A stretch of 64,000 bases of DNA, from NCBI GenBank assembly GCA_020241865.1, contig GCA_020241865.1_4709.1; one strand, given 5' to 3'. Below the pieces are notes generated by a model, which was not told the DNA's origin, made no database searches, and worked only from the letters and a program-made list of their open reading frames with translations. Positions 28,096 to 63,557 of the stretch are shown piece after piece (position 1 is the first letter of the stretch; every line of letters starts with the position of its first letter). Source of the stretch: a phage. The position numbers and the translations under genes are program-made.

Positions 28096-28968
28096 TTAAA
28101 CCCGGGTCAGGTCACCGTGACATGAAACGAACTCTGATAACGCTCGGGTTGCTTCTTTGGATTCTTCAGCCATCGGGAAGTTTGCGGTAATAAGTTCTCG
28201 TAAGACAGGGACGAGTTCATTATCTTCGAGATCGGAAGCTAAGGCGAATGCAATCAGTTCTTGGGTGTATGCATACGGTTGCTGACGTAATGCAGTAAGC
28301 TGATCCCGACACTGCGACATTAGCAGGTCCAGTGGAACCGCTATCGTACCCCCTTCATCAATATACTGGCTGAACACTGGTGGGAACGCATCGCTGATGA
28401 CACGAATACGTCGACGAATATGATCCGGAATCTGGACGTTTTCTTCATCGACGACGTTTTCGCTATCTTTCTCCAGCTTCTTGGTCAGTACCTCTTGAAT
28501 GCGTGGAAGTAAGCTTGAATGCACGAAACCGATTAATGGGGTTACGTTAACAGCATCGACACCGTAAATATAATGCGCGCATTCCGCTAGCGCTTCAGCT
28601 GCGGTGTAGTCTTCATCTTCAACGATAGCGAGTAGAAAAGCGGTATCGTCGTGTGTTTCCAGGTCTAATAACGTAGACGCTAGCGCATGAAGATATTTCA
28701 GGCTATCCAGAGTTAGCTGCCCTTCGTTAATTCGGATCCCGAAGGCAAGCAATTGTTGTTTATAAAGTTCGATACATCCGTTTGTTAAAATGATGTCTAA
28801 TTCGTTTAAATCGTATTGTTCCCCAGCACCTGACAACATCGTACTGCAGAACGTTTCCAGTTGTTCACATTTAAAATCTTGGTATAAACGATGTATGCAG
28901 TGCTGTAACAGCGTACGCCTTGTTTCAGGGATCTTACCTTCTAACAAAGCCAAGACGGAATCAATCAT
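28096..28968 (-). CDS. hypothetical protein (~290 aa)
   Basis: ORF 28096..28974 (GTG in track); ATG 28968 with GGAG RBS. Confidence 0.7.
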   Translation of the reverse strand: MIDSVLALLEGKIPETRRTLLQHCIHRLYQDFKCEQLETFCSTMLSGAGEQYDLNELDIILTNGCIELYKQQLLAFGIRINEGQLTLDSLKYLHALASTLLDLETHDDTAFLLAIVEDEDYTAAEALAECAHYIYGVDAVNVTPLIGFVHSSLLPRIQEVLTKKLEKDSENVVDEENVQIPDHIRRRIRVISDAFPPVFSQYIDEGGTIAVPLDLLMSQCRDQLTALRQQPYAYTQELIAFALASDLEDNELVPVLRELITANFPMAEESKEATRALSEFVSCHGDLTRV

Positions 28969-29064
28969 ATCCACTCCGATGCGGTAAATGTCTACTAGCT
29001 CTCATAATCTATTGAAGAAACTACCAGCTTACGCCAACTTAGATTAATCAGGAGTAACCATCCC

Positions 29065-29538
29065 ATGCCAGTTTCATCCAAACCAAGAAAAAAATCTGTA
29101 GGAAACCCTAAAGCTCAGGAAACAACAGCAATTCGTTGGGACGAGTTACGTGAACCTATCGAAAACTGCGAATTGTTATTAGGTACCCTGGGTGCAGCTA
29201 TTTACCAAGCGACGCAACCCTGTCGTTTACGATTAACCCAAAACAAACGTGATGAGTTCGTTGCGTTATCAACAAGCACGAATAAAGATCTGACCGAACT
29301 TCAAACCGAGTTGACGACGATCAAGAACTCCATCACGCCGATGTACGGTAAAGAAGTTGATGAACAAAGTATTCTGTTACAGTACAACTACGGGATGTCG
29401 TTAATGAACATCCTGGAACGCGCATCCGATATTCTGCGTCCTGACGTTGCACGCCTAAGCCAGCTGCGTGTCGAAGGGATGGAGAACCAGATCCGATTCG
29501 CTAACAGTGTTAAATCTCAAGGAGCCACCGAAGCATGA
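29065..29538 (+). CDS. hypothetical protein (157 aa)
   Basis: first gene of plus-strand unit diverging from 28975-29064; ATGA overlap with next gene. Confidence 0.7.
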   Translation: MPVSSKPRKKSVGNPKAQETTAIRWDELREPIENCELLLGTLGAAIYQATQPCRLRLTQNKRDEFVALSTSTNKDLTELQTELTTIKNSITPMYGKEVDEQSILLQYNYGMSLMNILERASDILRPDVARLSQLRVEGMENQIRFANSVKSQGATEA

Positions 29539-31199
29539 GCGAACAAGAAAAAGAAGTCGTGACGAATCAGGAAGCCGTTGAGCGTTCAGAGTCGTCCGTT
29601 GAAACAACGATTCCGGCAAGTTCCGAGCCTGTTGGTTCCACACAGCAGGAAAGTAAAGACGAAGTAGTGGCTCCAGAAGCAACCCGTGAAGAAGAACCAT
29701 CACATCCACCGCTGGTCGATTTCTCGAAGGCAACGATACGTTTCCAATGCGAAGACATTCGTCCTAAGAGTCCGAAGAAAACAAAACGTCAGCCGTTGGT
29801 GTTACCGCTGTATTCTCCACGTGTGCAGACAACGTATTACCGGGAATACATCAACGAAGCAATGGATACCGTGCAAGCCATTGTCGCTCAACGCGGTAAA
29901 CCGACAGACGAACAATTTGATAAATTCAGTAAAGCGGTGGTGCAATCGGTTGCTGATGGACAATATCATCCGCGTGGCCCAGCTCACGATCGCGCCTTGG
30001 AACGTAAGGGCAGTCAGTGGACTAACGTACCCGTAGACTCATCGGGTGTTGGTCGCGTTATTCCTGGCATTCCACAACCGAACCGTATCCCTGATGATGT
30101 CGAAGCGCCGCTGACAGGAACCGATGCGATCTATTTTGCCATCCGTAATACGAAATCAGGTGCGCCTGCGGTAATGCCGTTATGGCATAGCGGTATTAAG
30201 CTGCAGTTTAATCCGCCGTCAAATGAACGTGTTGCAATTATGCACGAACGTATTGCACGCGATAAAATCCTGGGTGGACGTGATAGTACCGGTTTCCTGT
30301 TTTCAGCAACCTCGATTATCACCATGAAGCACGCTATCGAATTAGCATTAGAATGCTGCTACATGGCCAACGTACCGAACCTGGATATCCAGCGTTTGAA
30401 AGACATTATTCCGGTTACCGATGTTCCAGCGTTATTGCTGAACGTGCTGGTAACCATGTACCCGTACGGATATCCTTACGTACAGACCTGCTATCAGAAT
30501 CCAGAAACCTGCGACTATCGTGTTGAAGATACCGTAAGCTTTGCGAAACTCTATCAAGTTGACAACAGCGCGATAACCAAACGTATGCGACAGATCATGA
30601 CCGAAGGTCCGGTCATGACGGATGAACTTTTGCGTGAGTATGCAAACGAACTGGGTGAAACAAACTCCCGTACGCTGGATCTGTCCGACAACGGTTCTGT
30701 TATCATTGAACTTGAAGTACCGAAGATTTCACGTCAGATCGCCATGGGCGAACGCTGGTTAAGCGATACCCTGGAAGATCTGCGTGATATTCTATCGCGT
30801 CCGTCAATGACCGAAGAAGAGCGTGATCGTGTTATTCGTGAACGTCAGTTCTATAGCTGGATGCGTCAGTATGATGCGTGGATCAAATCGATGCACGTGT
30901 CAGTAAACGGTACCATGCGTCGTGTAAGCGATGCAGATACGGCAACGGTATTAGCACAGCTGTCACGAGACAGCGACCTTCGTGAACGTTATATTGACGG
31001 GTTGATGCAATTCATCGGTGATTCGACGATTGCGCTCGCAGCGATGCCTGCCTGGAAATGTCCGAAATGTAATGCCGATATTGCTGACAATCTGCGTGAC
31101 CAGAAATACTACGATCTGATTGCTTTGGATGTACCCCAGCTTTTTTTTACCCTAAACTCCGTCCAATCTCTTCAGGAGGGGATGGACGCGGTATTCTAA
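29535..31199 (+). CDS. hypothetical protein (554 aa as annotated), probably continues by -1 shift at T8 run into 31262..31621 frame (predicted fusion ~695 aa)
   Basis: acidic N-terminus; zero frame stops 16 codons after T8 run at 31141-31148; -1 frame open from 31100 to 31621. Confidence 0.75.
   Translation: MSEQEKEVVTNQEAVERSESSVETTIPASSEPVGSTQQESKDEVVAPEATREEEPSHPPLVDFSKATIRFQCEDIRPKSPKKTKRQPLVLPLYSPRVQTTYYREYINEAMDTVQAIVAQRGKPTDEQFDKFSKAVVQSVADGQYHPRGPAHDRALERKGSQWTNVPVDSSGVGRVIPGIPQPNRIPDDVEAPLTGTDAIYFAIRNTKSGAPAVMPLWHSGIKLQFNPPSNERVAIMHERIARDKILGGRDSTGFLFSATSIITMKHAIELALECCYMANVPNLDIQRLKDIIPVTDVPALLLNVLVTMYPYGYPYVQTCYQNPETCDYRVEDTVSFAKLYQVDNSAITKRMRQIMTEGPVMTDELLREYANELGETNSRTLDLSDNGSVIIELEVPKISRQIAMGERWLSDTLEDLRDILSRPSMTEEERDRVIRERQFYSWMRQYDAWIKSMHVSVNGTMRRVSDADTATVLAQLSRDSDLRERYIDGLMQFIGDSTIALAAMPAWKCPKCNADIADNLRDQKYYDLIALDVPQLFFTLNSVQSLQEGMDAVF
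31141..31148 (+). other. T8 homopolymer: candidate -1 ribosomal frameshift or transcriptional slippage site (or homopolymer sequencing error)
   Basis: U UUU UUU heptamer in frame of 29535..31199; -1 frame continues to 31621. Confidence 0.45.
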
Positions 31200-31261
31200 T
31201 CGATCCGCGATACGGGTTACATGACGGACAACTTGTTCGTAATGATGAAAAAATCTGGGAA

Positions 31262-31621
31262 TTGCTGTTAGCGCGTAAAGGCGATGGTGGCATGAAGCTG
31301 AACATCGAAATGGGTATTGCGTACGATACCATGTTTGGCTTGTACGATCGTGTTAACGACTGGACGCCGTTGAAATGGGTGGCTCAGCACCCCGCTGAAG
31401 ATCCCTGGGACAGATTGGGGATTAAACCCTTAATCGAAGATTATGTCCGATTCGGTATTAAAGAGTTCATGACGTTGGATGCGTTTTTACAAGCACCGTA
31501 TCCTTACGCGCAAATGGTACTCAAAATCGCACAAGACGAACTGCGGAAACGTAGTGCGGTACTGGACGACGATGAGGACAAGTTACGACGAGAAGAAGAA
31601 CGTTTACGAAACGGAAAATAA
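31262..31621 (+). CDS. ORF probably expressed as C-terminal extension of 29535..31199 rather than independently
   Basis: track start is TTG with no RBS; first ATG (31292) has poor RBS; frame is open upstream through the T8 run. Confidence 0.45.
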   Translation: MLLARKGDGGMKLNIEMGIAYDTMFGLYDRVNDWTPLKWVAQHPAEDPWDRLGIKPLIEDYVRFGIKEFMTLDAFLQAPYPYAQMVLKIAQDELRKRSAVLDDDEDKLRREEERLRNGK

Positions 31622-31622
31622 A

Positions 31623-32132
31623 ATGGCGAGATTTACCAGTTTGATTGGGTTGGATATTTGGGAAACACCGGCTGACGTTCGGGTTATTCCTGTTAACACC
31701 GTCGGTGTGATGGGACGTGGTCTTGCCAAACAGGCAGCCGATCGTGTACCCGGTCTTCTTGAAGCGTACCGTAAGCAATGTCAAGATGGGTTTAAGGTGG
31801 GCGAAGTCGTGTCGTATCAACACGGTGATAACGATCAACTCACCTACGTGTTGTTTCCATCAAAATCGGATTGGCGTGAAAGAACACGACGCGAGTATAT
31901 CGTTAACGGTTTACTGGCGTTAAAAGCATGGTTACTGGAGCTTCAGTTCGAAAGAGACGGCTTCTCATATCGGCGTCCGGCTGAACCGCTGATCGTTGCA
32001 ATTCCTCCGGTTGGTTCTGGTTGCGGTAATATCGGTTACGGACAATCCGAAACAATCCAGCCTCAGTGGGTACGCGCACAAATCAAACAGTATCTTGCCA
32101 CCGTACCGAACGTTCATTTCTACTTGTTCTAA
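31623..32132 (+). CDS. macro-domain protein (ADP-ribose binding/hydrolase-like)
   Basis: N-terminal VIPVNTVGVMGRGLAKQAADRVPG and C-terminal IVAIPPVGSGCGNIGYG blocks resemble macro-domain signatures (cf. YmdB); ATG 31623 (MARFTSL). Confidence 0.65.
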   Translation: MARFTSLIGLDIWETPADVRVIPVNTVGVMGRGLAKQAADRVPGLLEAYRKQCQDGFKVGEVVSYQHGDNDQLTYVLFPSKSDWRERTRREYIVNGLLALKAWLLELQFERDGFSYRRPAEPLIVAIPPVGSGCGNIGYGQSETIQPQWVRAQIKQYLATVPNVHFYLF

Positions 32133-32143
32133 CGCAACGGTAA

Positions 32144-32186
32144 CATAACCCTCTCCCTTCCCTGCTGGGTTGGGAGAGGGCTTATG
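32144..32186. terminator. GC-rich palindromic hairpin (family member, reverse orientation) between convergent genes
   Basis: CATAACCCTCTCCCTTCCC-TGCT-GGGTTGGGAGAGGGCTTATG = reverse complement of the 1365 copy apart from loop. Confidence 0.6.
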
Positions 32187-32197
32187 CTGTTATGCTA

Positions 32198-32572
32198 TTA
32201 ATGTTCGTTCCAGATGGCATCTTCCGGTGGAACAATAGGATCTTTCTTCGGCATTGATGGCACTTCATGGCGATGTTTACGGAACTGCCTATCAATAACC
32301 TCACGAAGCCGGTACGCATCAACCCATGTTGATTTATTGAACAGCTCCAATGTCACAGTTAATCGTGTTCTTGACATTGAATAGCTTTTCTTTGCAATCA
32401 AATTGGGATAATTCAGTTGAGCGAACCACGCACGTATTTGTGCTTCGGTAAAAGCGATGCTGTAATAACTAAGTTTACCGTCATTAAAATCGTGCGCGTG
32501 GGTGTAACGTCCAGCGTAACGCCAGACAAGATGCACATTCAGATCGATCCATGGTGGGGTGGTATCAGCCAT
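32198..32572 (-). CDS. hypothetical protein (124 aa)
   Basis: ORF convergent with macro gene across GC hairpin. Confidence 0.6.
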   Translation of the reverse strand: MADTTPPWIDLNVHLVWRYAGRYTHAHDFNDGKLSYYSIAFTEAQIRAWFAQLNYPNLIAKKSYSMSRTRLTVTLELFNKSTWVDAYRLREVIDRQFRKHRHEVPSMPKKDPIVPPEDAIWNEH

Positions 32573-32581
32573 GTGTTACCC

Positions 32582-33151
32582 TCAACGATTCTTCATCACT
32601 TTACCCAGGCTTTCGATATTATCCCAAAAGCGATTTTTACTTGGCGCATCGCCGACGATAACCGACATCAAATCACGACGTTCGCGACTGATGATGCCTT
32701 GTGATTTCCAGATCACCATCGTCCAGCAAGCGGCCAGAACGAACAGATGGTTAATGCTCGGTTTGGTTTGCGCGATGAACGCAAGCCATGCCCAGATACC
32801 GGTGTATACTAGCGTCACTAAAAAGAGCGAGATTGTTGCAACGACAACAACGAAGTTTTGGACAGCGGGTTGATTAGCGTTATCATGAATAGCGGTAAGA
32901 TCAGGAAGATTACCTTCAACTGAACTCGTTTCATCGATTTCCAATTCTTCGATTTCTTTTCGTGTGTCAGGAGCTAATCCAGCATCATCGAGATGCTTTT
33001 TTAACCGCTGTATGCTTAATCGTTGACCGACAGGAATGTTGATGTTGTCGTAACTATTAAGCGCATCAACCAGGGAGCGTCCATCAACGAGAACCAAGCT
33101 CGCGGTACCCATCGTTTGCGGTTTTATTTTGTAAAGGTCTTTTACTTTCAT
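32582..33151 (-). CDS. membrane protein (189 aa, 2-3 predicted TM helices)
   Basis: hydrophobic segments VVVVATISLFLVTLVYTGIWAWLAFI and LFVLAACWTMVIW. Confidence 0.65.
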   Translation of the reverse strand: MKVKDLYKIKPQTMGTASLVLVDGRSLVDALNSYDNINIPVGQRLSIQRLKKHLDDAGLAPDTRKEIEELEIDETSSVEGNLPDLTAIHDNANQPAVQNFVVVVATISLFLVTLVYTGIWAWLAFIAQTKPSINHLFVLAACWTMVIWKSQGIISRERRDLMSVIVGDAPSKNRFWDNIESLGKVMKNR

Positions 33152-33172: not shown

Positions 33173-35785
33173 TTAAGCGTCCGGCGTAAAATCAAAAGGA
33201 ATGTCCGTACGAATGATATCATAACGTTTTCCGAGGAAATAAAACTCTTCGGGAACCTGACCGGGAATAATGCTATCACCGATGAACTGCGGATACGCCC
33301 AGATGTACTGAGTGAGTCCTTCGAACATATCCAGGTTATTTGCGTGGTTACCCATGATACGTTTCCAGAGTTCGCGTTTATACGGCGTTTTAACATCGAA
33401 ACCATAAAGCGGTGCAAGATCTTCACCAGGAACAAATCCCAGGTAATAGTGAATCTGACTAACCGGGAAACCAAGCGTATCTCGCGGAATGGTGATCGCT
33501 TGCTCAGCTTTGGTGACATGCGTTTCAATAATCCAGTCGTAACACTCTGAATAGAACCGATCGAATTTCTCTGGATTATACCACGCTTTGGGAAGATTCA
33601 GTTTCTCCGTGAACGCATTCGACATGATCGTCGGTAAGAACGGAAGAACACCGGTTTTGATCTGCGTGTATTTCGATTTTACCCGGTTAGCCAAATTCCA
33701 GCAACTGTATCCTAACTGTTCGTTACAAAACTCAACGTAGAGATCGTAATCACCGCCGGATAATGGGTTGTTGATATCACCAATGTCTGCAGCGTATTTG
33801 TTGGGATATCGGTTATTGAAAGCCAGTTTGGTTTGGTAATCGTAGATACACGGTTTGTTGTTCGCTGTATTGATCCACCACCAGGGTTCACCCACCTGTA
33901 CACAAATGTCCTGGACATGAGGGTAAATAATATCGGCAAACGCGGTTAACACATCCCCTAACCACGCCATCGCCTGTTGGTTACATGGAGACAGCAACCA
34001 GGATGGTGGTGTATATCCGGTTGCTGCGATGTTTCCTTCCCAATCCTGCTGCGCCCACTCGAACGGGCATGCTGTACTCATCAATTCGTAACTTAAACTG
34101 ATGGTGACAGAGAAATGGTGTTTTGCAGCATATGCGGCGAAAGCTTCATGCCACGCGATACAGGGTGGATTTAATACATCCGTGGTGTTCACCAGTAACT
34201 TACCCGCACTTGGCGTCCAGACAGTATCGTAGAAATGCGACATTCCAACATAATGCACTAATTCATCTTGATACCCCGCATAAACCAGGTTCTCAAATAC
34301 GCGCTCCGGCGTGATGTTGTAATGGTCATCATAAGCGGTTATCGCACGAAGTTCGTGTGGTGTACAGTGGTGACGATTAACCGTCATTTCCTGATACACC
34401 CCATCGATAGGAAGAATCTCGAGGGTTAAACCGAGGTCGATTGGCGTTTCCAGATAGGTCGTTTCAGTCGCACCTTCCTTATAATGTCGAGAACTCATGC
34501 TGAACATCAACGATGCTACCGATTCGAGTTCGATAGGCTCGTCAGCATAGAACCCCGCCATTGCGTCATTGAAATCGATCGTTACGATTGCGCTTCTACC
34601 GTCTTCAGAGACATCGGTGGCGTATCGGGTTAATGAGATATACTGACGGCTATCGTCTTTGTGTACGACGGTTAAAACCGGCGGGTTTTCGGTATCTGCA
34701 AAGTTACGCTGATCGCCAGTAAACGTGATCTTCGCTTTAAAGATCAAACCGAATAACGACGTCATGGGATCATACGCAATACAACCGTGATCCAGCGTAT
34801 CCGTTGTCCGCCATTCTATCCCGACCAACCCGTTAGCGGTATGGCATCGCATATACGCATTAAGTACCATGTCTTCACTGACAACCGCGAAGTTCTCTGT
34901 TGACTGACCGTTGATAATCCAATACATCGGTTGCCAGAGGTTACGCGTACCTTTTGCGTAGCGGTAGGTTGGTGCGCCTTTGGGGTTGCCATTATTAAGA
35001 TGGAATACTGCAGTACCTTGATAATGGTCGTTCGTATTAATCGGAACACTGTAAGCGTCACCGAGGTCCGTACGTTCCACCTTCGTGACCGTTGCGTTTT
35101 CAAATAACCCACGCAGCGCGGGTAAACCGATATCTTCAGGCGCGTTTTCTCGACGAATCGCATCCGCGATGCGATGGGCTAAGGCGGGGTAAATAGCTTC
35201 ACCCTGTTGTAGGTTTGCAAGACCTACAAAGCGATCAGGGTCGATACCAGCAATCAATAACTCAACATCACCCTTCGTTCTATCGTCGTTAAGATATTTC
35301 AGTCCGGTAAGGTCAAGATGCTGAATAAGCGACAACAGGTTGTATTTACGGTTTTCAACAGTTAGTACAAGATCGCCTGCCCAAACCAAACTTCCCTCAT
35401 CCGCTGTTACTTTAACAGATTGTCGGCCTGTGGTAGACGTTGTTGTCGTTTTATTTAATTGTCCTTGTAGGAAGTCGGTTGCGAGGTCAAAGGCAATGCC
35501 GTAACGGTCAGCGACCGCTTGCATGATTTCACGTAACTGGGTATCTTCTTCAATGATAATCTTGACAGGTATTCCCAGGAACGCTTTAGCGAGGTCTCGT
35601 TTAACCAACGAGACGAATACGGATTTGTAGTATCGGCTTCCATCTTTCCCTTTAAAAAGAATGGAGGTTGTTTCGGGTGCCGATAGAACACGTGCAAATA
35701 CAACATCGTCGGAAGTAAGAGAAAGTCCGTTTTTCTCGTTGACCAATCCTAGTATTTCATTTTGCGCGGTTTCATGTAACTTCAT
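33173..35785 (-). CDS. tail fibre/tailspike-like protein (870 aa) with shared N-terminal anchor domain
   Basis: N-terminal ~130 aa (YxSVFVSLVKRDLAKAFLGIPVKI, RYGIAFDLATDFL) paralogous to N-termini of 41406..41933, 42090..43844, 47493..48323. Confidence 0.7.
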   Translation of the reverse strand: MKLHETAQNEILGLVNEKNGLSLTSDDVVFARVLSAPETTSILFKGKDGSRYYKSVFVSLVKRDLAKAFLGIPVKIIIEEDTQLREIMQAVADRYGIAFDLATDFLQGQLNKTTTTSTTGRQSVKVTADEGSLVWAGDLVLTVENRKYNLLSLIQHLDLTGLKYLNDDRTKGDVELLIAGIDPDRFVGLANLQQGEAIYPALAHRIADAIRRENAPEDIGLPALRGLFENATVTKVERTDLGDAYSVPINTNDHYQGTAVFHLNNGNPKGAPTYRYAKGTRNLWQPMYWIINGQSTENFAVVSEDMVLNAYMRCHTANGLVGIEWRTTDTLDHGCIAYDPMTSLFGLIFKAKITFTGDQRNFADTENPPVLTVVHKDDSRQYISLTRYATDVSEDGRSAIVTIDFNDAMAGFYADEPIELESVASLMFSMSSRHYKEGATETTYLETPIDLGLTLEILPIDGVYQEMTVNRHHCTPHELRAITAYDDHYNITPERVFENLVYAGYQDELVHYVGMSHFYDTVWTPSAGKLLVNTTDVLNPPCIAWHEAFAAYAAKHHFSVTISLSYELMSTACPFEWAQQDWEGNIAATGYTPPSWLLSPCNQQAMAWLGDVLTAFADIIYPHVQDICVQVGEPWWWINTANNKPCIYDYQTKLAFNNRYPNKYAADIGDINNPLSGGDYDLYVEFCNEQLGYSCWNLANRVKSKYTQIKTGVLPFLPTIMSNAFTEKLNLPKAWYNPEKFDRFYSECYDWIIETHVTKAEQAITIPRDTLGFPVSQIHYYLGFVPGEDLAPLYGFDVKTPYKRELWKRIMGNHANNLDMFEGLTQYIWAYPQFIGDSIIPGQVPEEFYFLGKRYDIIRTDIPFDFTPDA

Positions 35786-60866: not shown

Positions 60867-63557
<2,691 letters not shown>

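Follow-up and report, generated by a model that had tools for sequence, protein, structure and literature searches.

An AdfM-type, DarG2-like macrodomain protein predicted in a Goslar-like Escherichia phage

An open reading frame for 169 amino acids plus a stop codon occupies positions 31623-32132 on the plus strand of a phage contig (GCA_020241865.1_4709.1), of which a stretch of 64,000 nucleotides, here called the window, was analysed. To which family does its product belong, and on what does it act? In a sequence-only reading the product was described as a macrodomain protein on account of two sequence blocks, and both were found in the translation (VIPVNTVGVMGRGLAKQAADRVPG, residues 21-44, and IVAIPPVGSGCGNIGYG, residues 124-140). 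As judged from its homologs, the gene very probably encodes an AdfM-type anti-defence enzyme, with predicted hydrolysis of ADP-ribosylated single-stranded DNA (ADPr-ssDNA), protection against DarTG2 and action in the phage nucleus. The earlier interpretation is correct, but already known: the chimallivirus family AdfM (anti-DarT factor macro) was named by Morgan et al. (Cell Rep 2026, PMC13309987), and the near-identical protein of phage Goslar is among the members listed there. Residual interest lies in two lineage-specific insertions and in a RefSeq start that is probably over-extended. A summary of the features is shown in Table 1.

Within the phage collection the window matches only Goslar (Goslarvirus), with 96.9% identity over 1.6 kb; in a comparison of a 24-kb stretch, 73% aligns at 93.3% identity. 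The protein is 97% identical in amino acid sequence to Goslar gp83 (YP_009820768.1). By these identities the window is closely related to Escherichia phage Goslar, an established chimallivirus, i.e., a nucleus-forming jumbo phage (PMC11087766), and the protein is accordingly chimallivirus-encoded, as are the members of AdfM. Neither the nucleus-forming nature of the phage nor the activity of the characterised homologs inside the phage nucleus was within the scope of the sequence-only reading.

Table 1. Features at and around the adfM-type gene (positions in the window)
Feature	Position	Strand	Basis
Three co-directional genes of unknown function 5' of adfM, orthologs of Goslar gp080-gp082	29065..31621	+	
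Stop/start junction TAAAATG	31619..31625	+	upstream stop 1 nt from the adfM ATG
adfM-type gene, predicted stand-alone DarG2-like macrodomain, 169 aa, Goslar gp83 ortholog	31623..32132	+	ORF, Goslar match, family and fold searches
Predicted ADP-ribose-binding loop 1, residues V24-G33 (VNTVGVMGRG)	31692..31721	+	HMMER alignment to 5m31
Predicted catalytic strand S80-K81-S82-D83-W84	31860..31874	+	alignment to DarG/TARG1
Insertion 1, residues ~108-122, QFERDGFSYRRPAEP	31944..31988	+	alignments; absent from bacterial DarG
Predicted Gly-rich diphosphate-binding loop 2, G131-S-G-C-G135	32013..32027	+	alignment to T. aquaticus DarG G117-A-G-N-G121
Insertion 2, residues ~136-147, NIGYGQSETIQP	32028..32063	+	directly after the catalytic Gly loop
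Strong hairpin between convergent adfM and minus-strand gene 32198-32572	32134..32195	.	folding

Three start codons compete for the frame. The ATG at 31623, giving 169 residues, appears better supported than the RefSeq start (186 residues) or the start of the longest open reading frame (217 residues), because in a homolog of 47% identity (L002) an in-frame stop precedes the ATG by 9 nt and because the N-terminus MAEF of PhiKZ gp104 aligns with MARF of the window protein. Compared with Goslar, the open reading frame differs at 25 nucleotides, 19 of which fall in synonymous codons and 6 in five amino-acid-changing codons, a pattern that indicates purifying selection on the frame. A rival reading is that the gene no longer has a function in this phage and is the remnant of a macrodomain, inactive or in decay. 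Such decay would be compatible with the occurrence of an AdfM gene in only about half of the chimalliviruses, which makes it dispensable in general (PMC13309987), and with the viability of PhiKZ deletions on hosts that lack DarTG2. It is nevertheless extremely unlikely, as the frame is intact with all key residues kept, synonymous-codon differences predominate, and the gene is retained, in the same order, in the divergent relative L002.

The generic macrodomain profile recognises the protein only just above its threshold (Pfam Macro PF01661, E=1e-5, 25.9 bits versus a gathering score of 22, profile positions 3-113 of 118). DarG profiles match far better: antitoxin_DarG is by far the top match in NCBIfam (E=8.6e-23, positions 7-146 of 338), with a score of 81 bits that lies far under the equivalog cut-off of 250, and the PADLOC DarG profile gives E=4e-22 (positions 8-143 of 329). 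A weak Pfam match to DUF7242 (E=0.002, 17.9 bits versus a cut-off of 27) is below threshold and was discarded. In a single-sequence search of the PDB the only significant matches are DarG macrodomains (5m31, from T. aquaticus, 5e-15; 5m3i, 4e-11; 7omu, 1e-4), and TARG1 was not found; in the profile search DarG reaches 7e-42, TARG1 5e-14 and Poa1p 7e-5. The AlphaFold2 model (mean pLDDT 86.7, pTM 0.85) has the three-layer alpha/beta/alpha architecture of the macro fold, and DarG macrodomains take the first four ranks when it is compared with the PDB by Foldseek (E about 1e-13, TM-score 0.86-0.87, normalised to the target). There are 167 PDB matches at E<=1e-3, and the 50 listed are macrodomains or designed serine hydrolases with a macro-like scaffold. 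Profile and structure comparison, which the sequence-only reading had named as a check on its macrodomain claim, place the protein inside the macro fold; by sequence and model the assignment is confirmed well beyond chance. Within the fold both lines of comparison point to the DarG2 antitoxin branch, with human TARG1 next and the other macro families far behind.

Among the families far behind is Poa1p, on which rests the reading of the protein as an ADP-ribose-1''-phosphate phosphatase (Appr-1-p processing), engaged in RNA repair or in the metabolism of tRNA-splicing by-products. Older annotations point that way: the Goslar record carries the CDD note Macro_Poa1p_like, PHROG 335 (E=1e-18) is labelled 'phosphatase', and among the phage homologs several bear the name Appr-1-p processing. 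This reading is highly improbable, since the phosphatase labels are inherited annotation, the DarG catalytic set is kept, and Poa1p is not the closest relative by either comparison; its structures (6lfq-6lfu) match at 7e-5 to 1.7e-4 by profile and stand at rank 23 or lower in Foldseek with an rmsd of about 5 A.

The residues expected at the active site of a DarG2-type enzyme are present on alignment, which was the second check named in the sequence-only reading: N25, K81, W84 and the glycines G131, G133 and G135. N25 (codon 31695-31697) aligns with N22 of T. aquaticus DarG and N23 of PhiKZ AdfM, and with G28, M30, G31 and G33 it is invariant in a 14-sequence alignment. Equally invariant are K81 (31863-31865), corresponding to the catalytic K80 of T. 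aquaticus DarG and to K84 of TARG1, and W84 (31872-31874), corresponding to DarG W83. The three glycines correspond to G117, G119 and G121 of T. aquaticus DarG, and Q37 likewise matches a member of the DarG set for ADP-ribose binding or catalysis. For the matching DarG residues these roles are known from mutagenesis or crystal structure; replacement of N22 by alanine lowers activity, and for W83 stacking on the modified thymine has been proposed (PMC5179494). PhiKZ gp104 likewise loses activity when the conserved asparagine of its catalytic site is mutated (N23A), though not necessarily all of it (PMC13309987). The one exception in the set is C134, which takes the place of N120, an ADP-ribose contact in T. 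aquaticus DarG; among the aligned phage homologs the residue here varies and is a histidine in PhiPA3 gp108, the loss of which sensitises PhiPA3 to DarTG2 (PMC13309987).

TARG1, the second-closest solved family, suggests a different substrate: the protein could be a TARG1-like de-ADP-ribosylase acting mainly on protein or RNA, for example by reversing marks set on proteins by host or phage ADP-ribosyltransferases or by freeing cytoplasmic mRNA of ADP-ribose. The catalytic lysine is common to both, and phages that form a nucleus leave their mRNAs open to the cytoplasm. Because TARG1-like enzymes can act on protein and nucleic-acid substrates too, homology does not prove a specificity for DNA. 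Still, this is an improbable reading. TARG1 trails DarG widely in the profile search and is absent from the single-sequence matches; its second catalytic residue, D125, is replaced here by a glycine (G135), the DarG-like state; the DarG-specific tryptophan (W83) is present where TARG1 has alanine; and the tested homologs are nuclear and act on DNA (PMC13309987).

The sequence-only reading had also proposed the degradation of NAD-derived signalling or defence products, for which no support was found here. A protein that binds or degrades an NAD-derived immune signal, be it Thoeris gcADPR or O-acetyl-ADP-ribose, would fit the general ability of macrodomains to bind ADP-ribose derivatives and the automatic naming of some metagenomic homologs as 'O-acetyl-ADP-ribose deacetylase'. 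It is very unlikely in this case: no search gave similarity to known sponges or degraders of Thoeris signals, the retained nucleophilic lysine and base-stacking tryptophan argue for a glycosidic-bond hydrolase on a nucleobase-linked substrate, and homologs have a demonstrated DarT2-specific phenotype (PMC13309987). The NAD-dependent ligase that had been cited in the same context is indeed encoded in the window (61180-63249, minus strand); its supposed relevance to the mechanism did not hold.

The proposed reversal of DarT modification fared better, as DarG2 is nearest by every measure, the homologs of PhiKZ and PhiPA3 have been shown by experiment to bring it about, and Goslar gp83 is listed as a member of the family (PMC13309987). 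Of the DarG profiles, only the macro half finds a match in the window protein, which has no counterpart of the C-terminal DarT-binding domain; PADLOC detected no adjacent darT and no defence system among the six flanking open reading frames. With the macro half only and no toxin gene nearby, it is therefore regarded as an orphan antitoxin mimic, and its macrodomain probably derives from, or shares ancestry with, that of the bacterial DarG2 antitoxin. By sequence comparison and modelling, the fold, the closest family, the conservation of the active site, the orphan status and the orthology to Goslar gp83 are considered established here.

PhiKZ gp104 strips DarT2-derived ADP-ribose from ssDNA in vitro and rescues DarT2 toxicity; in infection PhiKZ AdfM is nuclear and is needed on DarTG2-positive hosts (PMC13309987). 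Protection from DarTG2 was shown with mutants of PhiKZ and PhiPA3, and PicA-dependent nuclear import for the proteins of PhiKZ, PhiPA3 and Asesino, whereas Goslar gp83 is listed in Figure 1A/B of the same paper in an alignment only (PMC13309987). Hydrolysis of ADP-ribose from thymidine in ssDNA is known for DarG of T. aquaticus and M. tuberculosis (PMC5179494), and a DarTG2 system restricts coliphages, T5 among them, when E. coli is made to express it (PMC11825919; preprint 10.1101/2025.11.20.689424). In the literature no experiment on Goslar gp83 and no paper testing Goslar against DarTG were found; gp83 goes unmentioned in the Goslar virion-structure preprint, as do macrodomains in a review of nucleus-forming phages. 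From homologs of about 32% identity we infer that the window protein would act as an ADPr-ssDNA glycohydrolase, protect against DarTG2 and be imported into the phage nucleus.

In the proposed mechanism, DarT2 of a DarTG2-carrying E. coli would attach ADP-ribose to thymidines at TNTC-type motifs in phage ssDNA. The window protein, by analogy with its homologs in PhiKZ, PhiPA3 and Asesino, would be imported into the phage nucleus and act inside it, complementing the nuclear shell. The ADP-ribose moiety would be bound via loop 1 (N25) and the Gly-rich loop 2, W84 would place the modified base, and K81 would serve in cleavage of the ribose-thymine bond. Unmodified DNA would thus be restored, allowing replication and, above all, genome packaging to proceed. 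TNTC itself shows no deficit in the window (2350 occurrences versus 2240 +/- 43 expected under a first-order Markov model), and these counts give no sign of motif avoidance.

Two insertions distinguish the protein from bacterial DarG. The first, at a site where the PhiKZ and PhiPA3 proteins have an insertion too, is modelled with lower confidence (pLDDT 64 for the block 111-120) and lies within the segment aligned to the region of PhiKZ gp104 recognised for nuclear import (aa 66-115; PMC11087766); a role in import may be suggested from this position, as an inference only. The second is restricted to the Goslar-like lineage (window, Goslar and L002) and missing from PhiKZ, PhiPA3 and Asesino; pLDDT falls below 50 at residues 135-141. 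Even PhiKZ and PhiPA3 differ in import, which is highly species-specific and relies on signals that are surface features (PMC11087766), for which reason the localisation of the window protein cannot be read from its sequence. That the two insertions form a species-specific import surface or alter the substrate reach, making the protein a functionally distinct AdfM subtype, is unlikely. An altered reach might mean, for example, DarT2 sites in another sequence context or a substrate other than DNA.

The adfM-type gene and the three genes upstream of it form a four-gene block that is conserved in the Goslar-like lineage only. The single nucleotide between the upstream stop and the adfM ATG suggests translational coupling of the two genes; in L002 the spacing is comparably tight (2 nt). 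The frameshift link to the upstream gene assumed in the sequence-only reading was rejected: the stretch over which the macro frame stays open upstream (to 31473) is not conserved, as the frame in L002 is closed 9 nt before its start, and the gp081- and gp082-type genes are separate and full-length in L002 and in the PHROG families. PhiKZ gp100, gp101 and gp103 have no similarity to the three upstream open reading frames and the block is not syntenic with PhiKZ gp100-103, so that beyond the Goslar lineage gene context offers no hint of function. Pfam, run on five of the six flanking open reading frames, gave no match. The hairpin downstream of adfM (free energy -35.3 kcal/mol, z = -5.6 versus shuffles) has no trailing T-run; the Goslar record gives it as a putative terminator, and it is probably a transcription terminator. 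A consensus scan of 28800-32700 returned zero intrinsic terminators; it depends on a T-run and missed this hairpin. Sigma-70-like sites in the same region are fewer than in shuffled sequences, a scan that is uninformative for a phage with its own RNA polymerases.

AdfM shows the phage nucleus to be an incomplete barrier: an imported enzyme is still needed by nucleus-forming jumbo phages to erase the ADP-ribosylation of DNA by DarT2. In practical terms, the gene can be annotated as an AdfM-type anti-DarTG2 factor instead of 'phosphatase', 'Appr-1-p processing' or hypothetical protein, with the start corrected to 169 residues. It is predicted that Goslar-like E. coli phages resist DarTG2 and lose this resistance upon knock-down of the adfM-type gene. 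Goslar, which is tractable by dCas13d knock-down, and E. coli with a DarTG2 system, for which a cloned plasmid already exists, would be an easy pair for extending the published Pseudomonas results.

Among known systems, the AdfM family (PhiKZ gp104, PhiPA3 gp108, Asesino gp217 and Goslar gp83) provides the same stand-alone macrodomain of about 160-170 residues in nucleus-forming jumbo phages, of the same DarG2-like type and with the catalytic asparagine and lysine that the window protein keeps as N25 and K81. PhiKZ gp104 is 32% identical to it over nearly the full length (E=1e-24) and Asesino gp217 matches with E=3e-18; the PhiKZ, PhiPA3 and Asesino proteins differ in lacking the insertion after the Gly loop, and PhiKZ in its non-syntenic flanking genes. 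The DarG2 macrodomains of T. aquaticus (5m31/5m3e), M. tuberculosis (5m3i) and Thermosipho (7omu) are the best match in sequence, profile and fold, and that of T. aquaticus suffices alone as an antitoxin (PMC5179494). The window protein differs from DarG2 in being phage-encoded, in its length (169 residues versus profiles of about 330-340 positions, the C-terminal DarT-binding domain being absent), in having no adjacent darT, in the two insertions and in C134 for N120. Human TARG1 (OARD1, C6orf130; 4j5s) is of the same macro subclass, with an equivalent catalytic lysine, and is the second-best structural match; it is only about 17-21% identical and departs at the D125 and tryptophan positions. 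T4 Tk.4, independently named AdfM, is an orphan phage macrodomain needed for resistance to DarTG2 expressed in E. coli (HIDEN-SEQ preprint, 10.1101/2025.11.20.689424) and has the concept and the host species in common with the window phage. It shares 25% identity over 114 aa (E=3e-5 pairwise) and has a tyrosine in the DarG-K80 column in BLAST and MAFFT alignments; on account of this low identity and the tyrosine, it is by sequence not an ortholog, and its chemistry may be different. AdfN, the NADAR orphan antitoxins of T-even phages, follow the same strategy of erasing DarT marks by an orphan antitoxin enzymatic domain, but with an unrelated NADAR fold that is specific for the guanosine modification of DarT1 and was shown not to counter DarTG2 (PMC11825919).

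The closest family of the protein encoded by the adfM-type ORF, which is intact with 169 codons and a stop, is the DarG2 antitoxin macrodomain. Very probably the protein acts as an orphan DarG2-like ADP-ribosyl-DNA glycohydrolase against DarT2: it would strip the ADP-ribose installed by this toxin from phage single-stranded DNA, most likely in the phage nucleus. The present analysis establishes its fold, family, active-site residues, orphan status and orthology; its activity, protective effect and localisation are carried over by analogy from homologs.

The macro fold proposed in the sequence-only reading was borne out by Pfam Macro (25.9 bits against a gathering score of 22), PHROG 335 (E=1e-18), an AlphaFold2 model from a 14-sequence alignment (mean pLDDT 86.7, pTM 0.85) and Foldseek comparison of this model with the PDB (167 matches at E<=1e-3). 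Both peptide blocks quoted in that reading are present, at residues 21-44 and 124-140; comparison places the protein inside the macro fold, and the catalytic residues are present on alignment. Searched as a single sequence against all PDB chains, the protein matched DarG of T. aquaticus (5m31, E=5e-15) and M. tuberculosis (5m3i, 4e-11), Thermosipho DarTG (7omu, 1e-4) and one further entry with E>1. The homolog-profile search of the PDB ranked DarG (7e-42) ahead of human TARG1 (5e-14) and yeast Poa1p (7e-5). The same DarG entries also fill the first four Foldseek ranks (target-normalised TM-scores of 0.86-0.87 for free-standing DarG macrodomains), ahead of TARG1. The PADLOC DarG model (E=4e-22, positions 8-143 of 329) and the NCBIfam equivalog antitoxin_DarG (8.6e-23, positions 7-146 of 338) align in their N-terminal macro half only, the latter at 81 bits, far under its full-length cut-off of 250. 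The C-terminal domain with which DarG binds DarT is missing. Defence-system models gave no hit in the six flanking ORFs, nor did Pfam in the five of these scanned against it.

Active-site residues were mapped by HMMER alignment to 5m31, with script-verified positions. In T. aquaticus DarG, K80A is inactive and N22A, K29E and G119E strongly reduce activity (Jankevicius et al. 2016, PMC5179494). N25, K81, W84, G131, G133 and G135 are invariant in all 14 aligned homologs. G135 occupies the column of the second catalytic residue of TARG1, D125, glycine being the DarG state. The one departure from DarG in the active site is C134, in a column that varies among the aligned phage homologs (N in PhiKZ gp104, H in PhiPA3 gp108, L in a metagenomic relative, L002).

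Active-site residues of T. aquaticus DarG (roles from PMC5179494) and their counterparts in the phage protein
DarG residue	Role in DarG	Phage residue
N22	positions ADPr-thymidine	N25
K29	K29E inhibitory	R32
Q34	ADP-ribose contact	Q37
T79	ADP-ribose contact	S80
K80	catalytic lysine (TARG1 K84)	K81
W83	proposed thymine stacking; Ala in TARG1	W84
G117/G119/G121	loop closing on ADP-ribose	G131/G133/G135
N120	ADP-ribose contact	C134

The ORF corresponds to gp083 of Escherichia phage vB_EcoM_Goslar (YP_009820768.1, annotated 'macro domain-containing protein'), the sole match of positions 31000-32600 in a megablast search of the phage collection (96.9% identity). The 24 kb around the gene (20000-44000) align to Goslar over 73% of their length in 10 pieces at 93.3% identity, so the source is a relative of Goslar and not Goslar itself: a distinct Goslar-like phage, mosaic in comparison with Goslar. 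Five substitutions separate the two 169-aa proteins (D40E, Q54R, K58T, D69E and R117H), all outside the active site. Nineteen nucleotide differences fall in synonymous codons and six in the five amino-acid-changing codons, which indicates purifying selection. Many public read sets contain proteins with 98-99% identity, one cluster numbering 232 sequences, and so does a contig of a Salmonella assembly.

A TARG1-like enzyme removing ADP-ribose from protein or RNA, an Appr-1''-p phosphatase resembling Poa1p, which the legacy annotation (PHROG 335 and the Goslar record) implies, binding or degradation of NAD-derived signals, which the sequence-only reading had offered as its second option, and a decaying gene are all weaker explanations. 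Against these four jointly stand the ranking of DarG over TARG1 over Poa1p, the DarG-type glycine at the TARG1 D125 position, the conserved tryptophan and the selection pattern. Reversal of DarT-type DNA ADP-ribosylation, the first option, is favoured by the DarG2 family placement, the aligned active site and, by analogy, the tested homologs. Counted on both strands of the whole window, the DarT2 target motif TNTC is not depleted (2350 observed, 2240 +/- 43 expected under a first-order Markov model); the lack of any sign of avoidance fits a phage that relies on an enzyme to erase the mark. The NAD-dependent ligase likewise remarked on is a full-length LigA-type enzyme with adenylation, OB, zinc-finger, HhH and BRCT domains.

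Positions of the features discussed
Feature	Sequence	Position	Strand	Remark
gp082 ortholog	window	31262-31621	+	probable start TTG 31262 (119 aa); RefSeq-equivalent ATG 31292 (109 aa)
apparent over-extension of longer starts	window	31479-31622
adfM-type ORF	window	31623-32132	+	169 aa
hairpin	window	32134-32195		-35.3 kcal/mol
870-aa ORF	window	33173-35785	-	ortholog of Goslar gp86
NAD-dependent ligase	window	61180-63249	-	LigA-type
RefSeq extension of gp083	Goslar locus L001	8573-8623		51 nt
gp37	phiEco32 locus L007	359-799
Tk.4	T4 locus L008	5923-6390

Four co-directional genes are orthologous to Goslar gp080-gp083; adfM closes the series, with one base between the upstream stop and its ATG (TAAAATG). 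RefSeq places the start of Goslar gp083 further upstream (186 aa), and the longest ORF of a 99%-identical NCBI protein from a Salmonella enterica Muenchen contig (P0001) has 217 aa; both starts seem to reach too far into the upstream gene. In the L002 homolog an in-frame stop lies 9 nt ahead of the ATG, and MARF here aligns with MA(N/E)F, the N-terminus of the 47%-identical homologs and of PhiKZ gp104; the 169-aa reading is therefore best, and any conserved fusion to the upstream gene by frameshifting is disfavoured. No evidence supports the frameshift link assumed earlier. The upstream gene itself probably starts at TTG, as the alignment with the gp082-type protein of L002 (41% identical) begins at residue 2 and puts Thr opposite the RefSeq-start Met. 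The four-gene order recurs in L002, whose macro protein is just 47% identical, and the upstream genes show no similarity to PhiKZ gp100, gp101 and gp103, which makes the neighbourhood a feature of the lineage and not a functional module. The hairpin 3' of adfM, between convergent genes, is very stable (z = -5.6 against shuffles) and has no T-run; the Goslar record marks its counterpart as a putative terminator. The hairpin may end transcription by the phage RNA polymerase independently of any factor, or act in both directions.

Two insertions distinguish the protein from bacterial DarG. Residues ~108-122, partly common to PhiKZ and PhiPA3, lie in the stretch that corresponds by homology to the region of the PhiKZ protein recognised for import; residues ~136-147, immediately after the catalytic Gly loop, are confined to the Goslar-like lineage and poorly modelled (pLDDT <50 at 135-141). 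Speculatively, they may form an import-licensing surface or a substrate-access lid. Even PhiKZ and PhiPA3 differ in import, which is species-specific and relies on a folded surface including gp104 residues 66-115 (PMC11087766), so import cannot be inferred from sequence.

The family is already known: it was published in 2026, as AdfM, by Morgan et al. (PMC13309987), who name the near-identical Goslar gp83 by accession in the Figure 1A/B alignment; experiments on gp83 were found neither there nor elsewhere in the literature. PhiKZ gp104 (32% identical to the protein described here, E=1e-24) takes DarT2-installed ADP-ribose off a TNTC oligonucleotide, less so when a conserved catalytic-site asparagine is mutated (N23A), and rescues DarT2 toxicity in E. 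coli. On hosts with cloned DarTG2, deletion of PhiKZ AdfM lowers titres by three to six logs, and a PhiPA3 mutant also loses titre; when AdfM is missing, phage DNA acquires ADP-ribose and the packaging of genomes fails. The proteins of PhiKZ, PhiPA3 and Asesino are located in the phage nucleus; the more nuclear AdfM there is relative to DarT2, the stronger the protection (experiments of PMC13309987). The remaining value lies in correcting the annotation and in an easy E. coli-Goslar extension of the published work.

Asesino gp217 matches at E=3e-18, and tblastn found homologs in 175 phage records, among them PhiKZ-like phages, PhiPA3, 201phi2-1, SPN3US and Erwinia jumbo phages as well as non-nucleus phiEco32-like podophages. 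PhiEco32 gp37 and related Kuravirus records are DarG-like stand-alone macrodomains with the FPTKKHWR catalytic motif kept. Their presence in small non-nucleus E. coli podophages indicates that the orphan-DarG strategy is not confined to chimalliviruses; no discussion of them as Adf factors was found in the literature consulted. Coliphages such as T5 are restricted when E. coli expresses a DarTG2 system (PMC11825919), and T4 requires its own macrodomain Tk.4 against it, independently named AdfM (preprint 10.1101/2025.11.20.689424). Tk.4 is a distant relative of the present protein (25% identity over 114 aa), with Tyr in the K80 column of DarG; the two are not orthologous and their mechanisms may differ, so that one name now denotes two different phage macrodomains.
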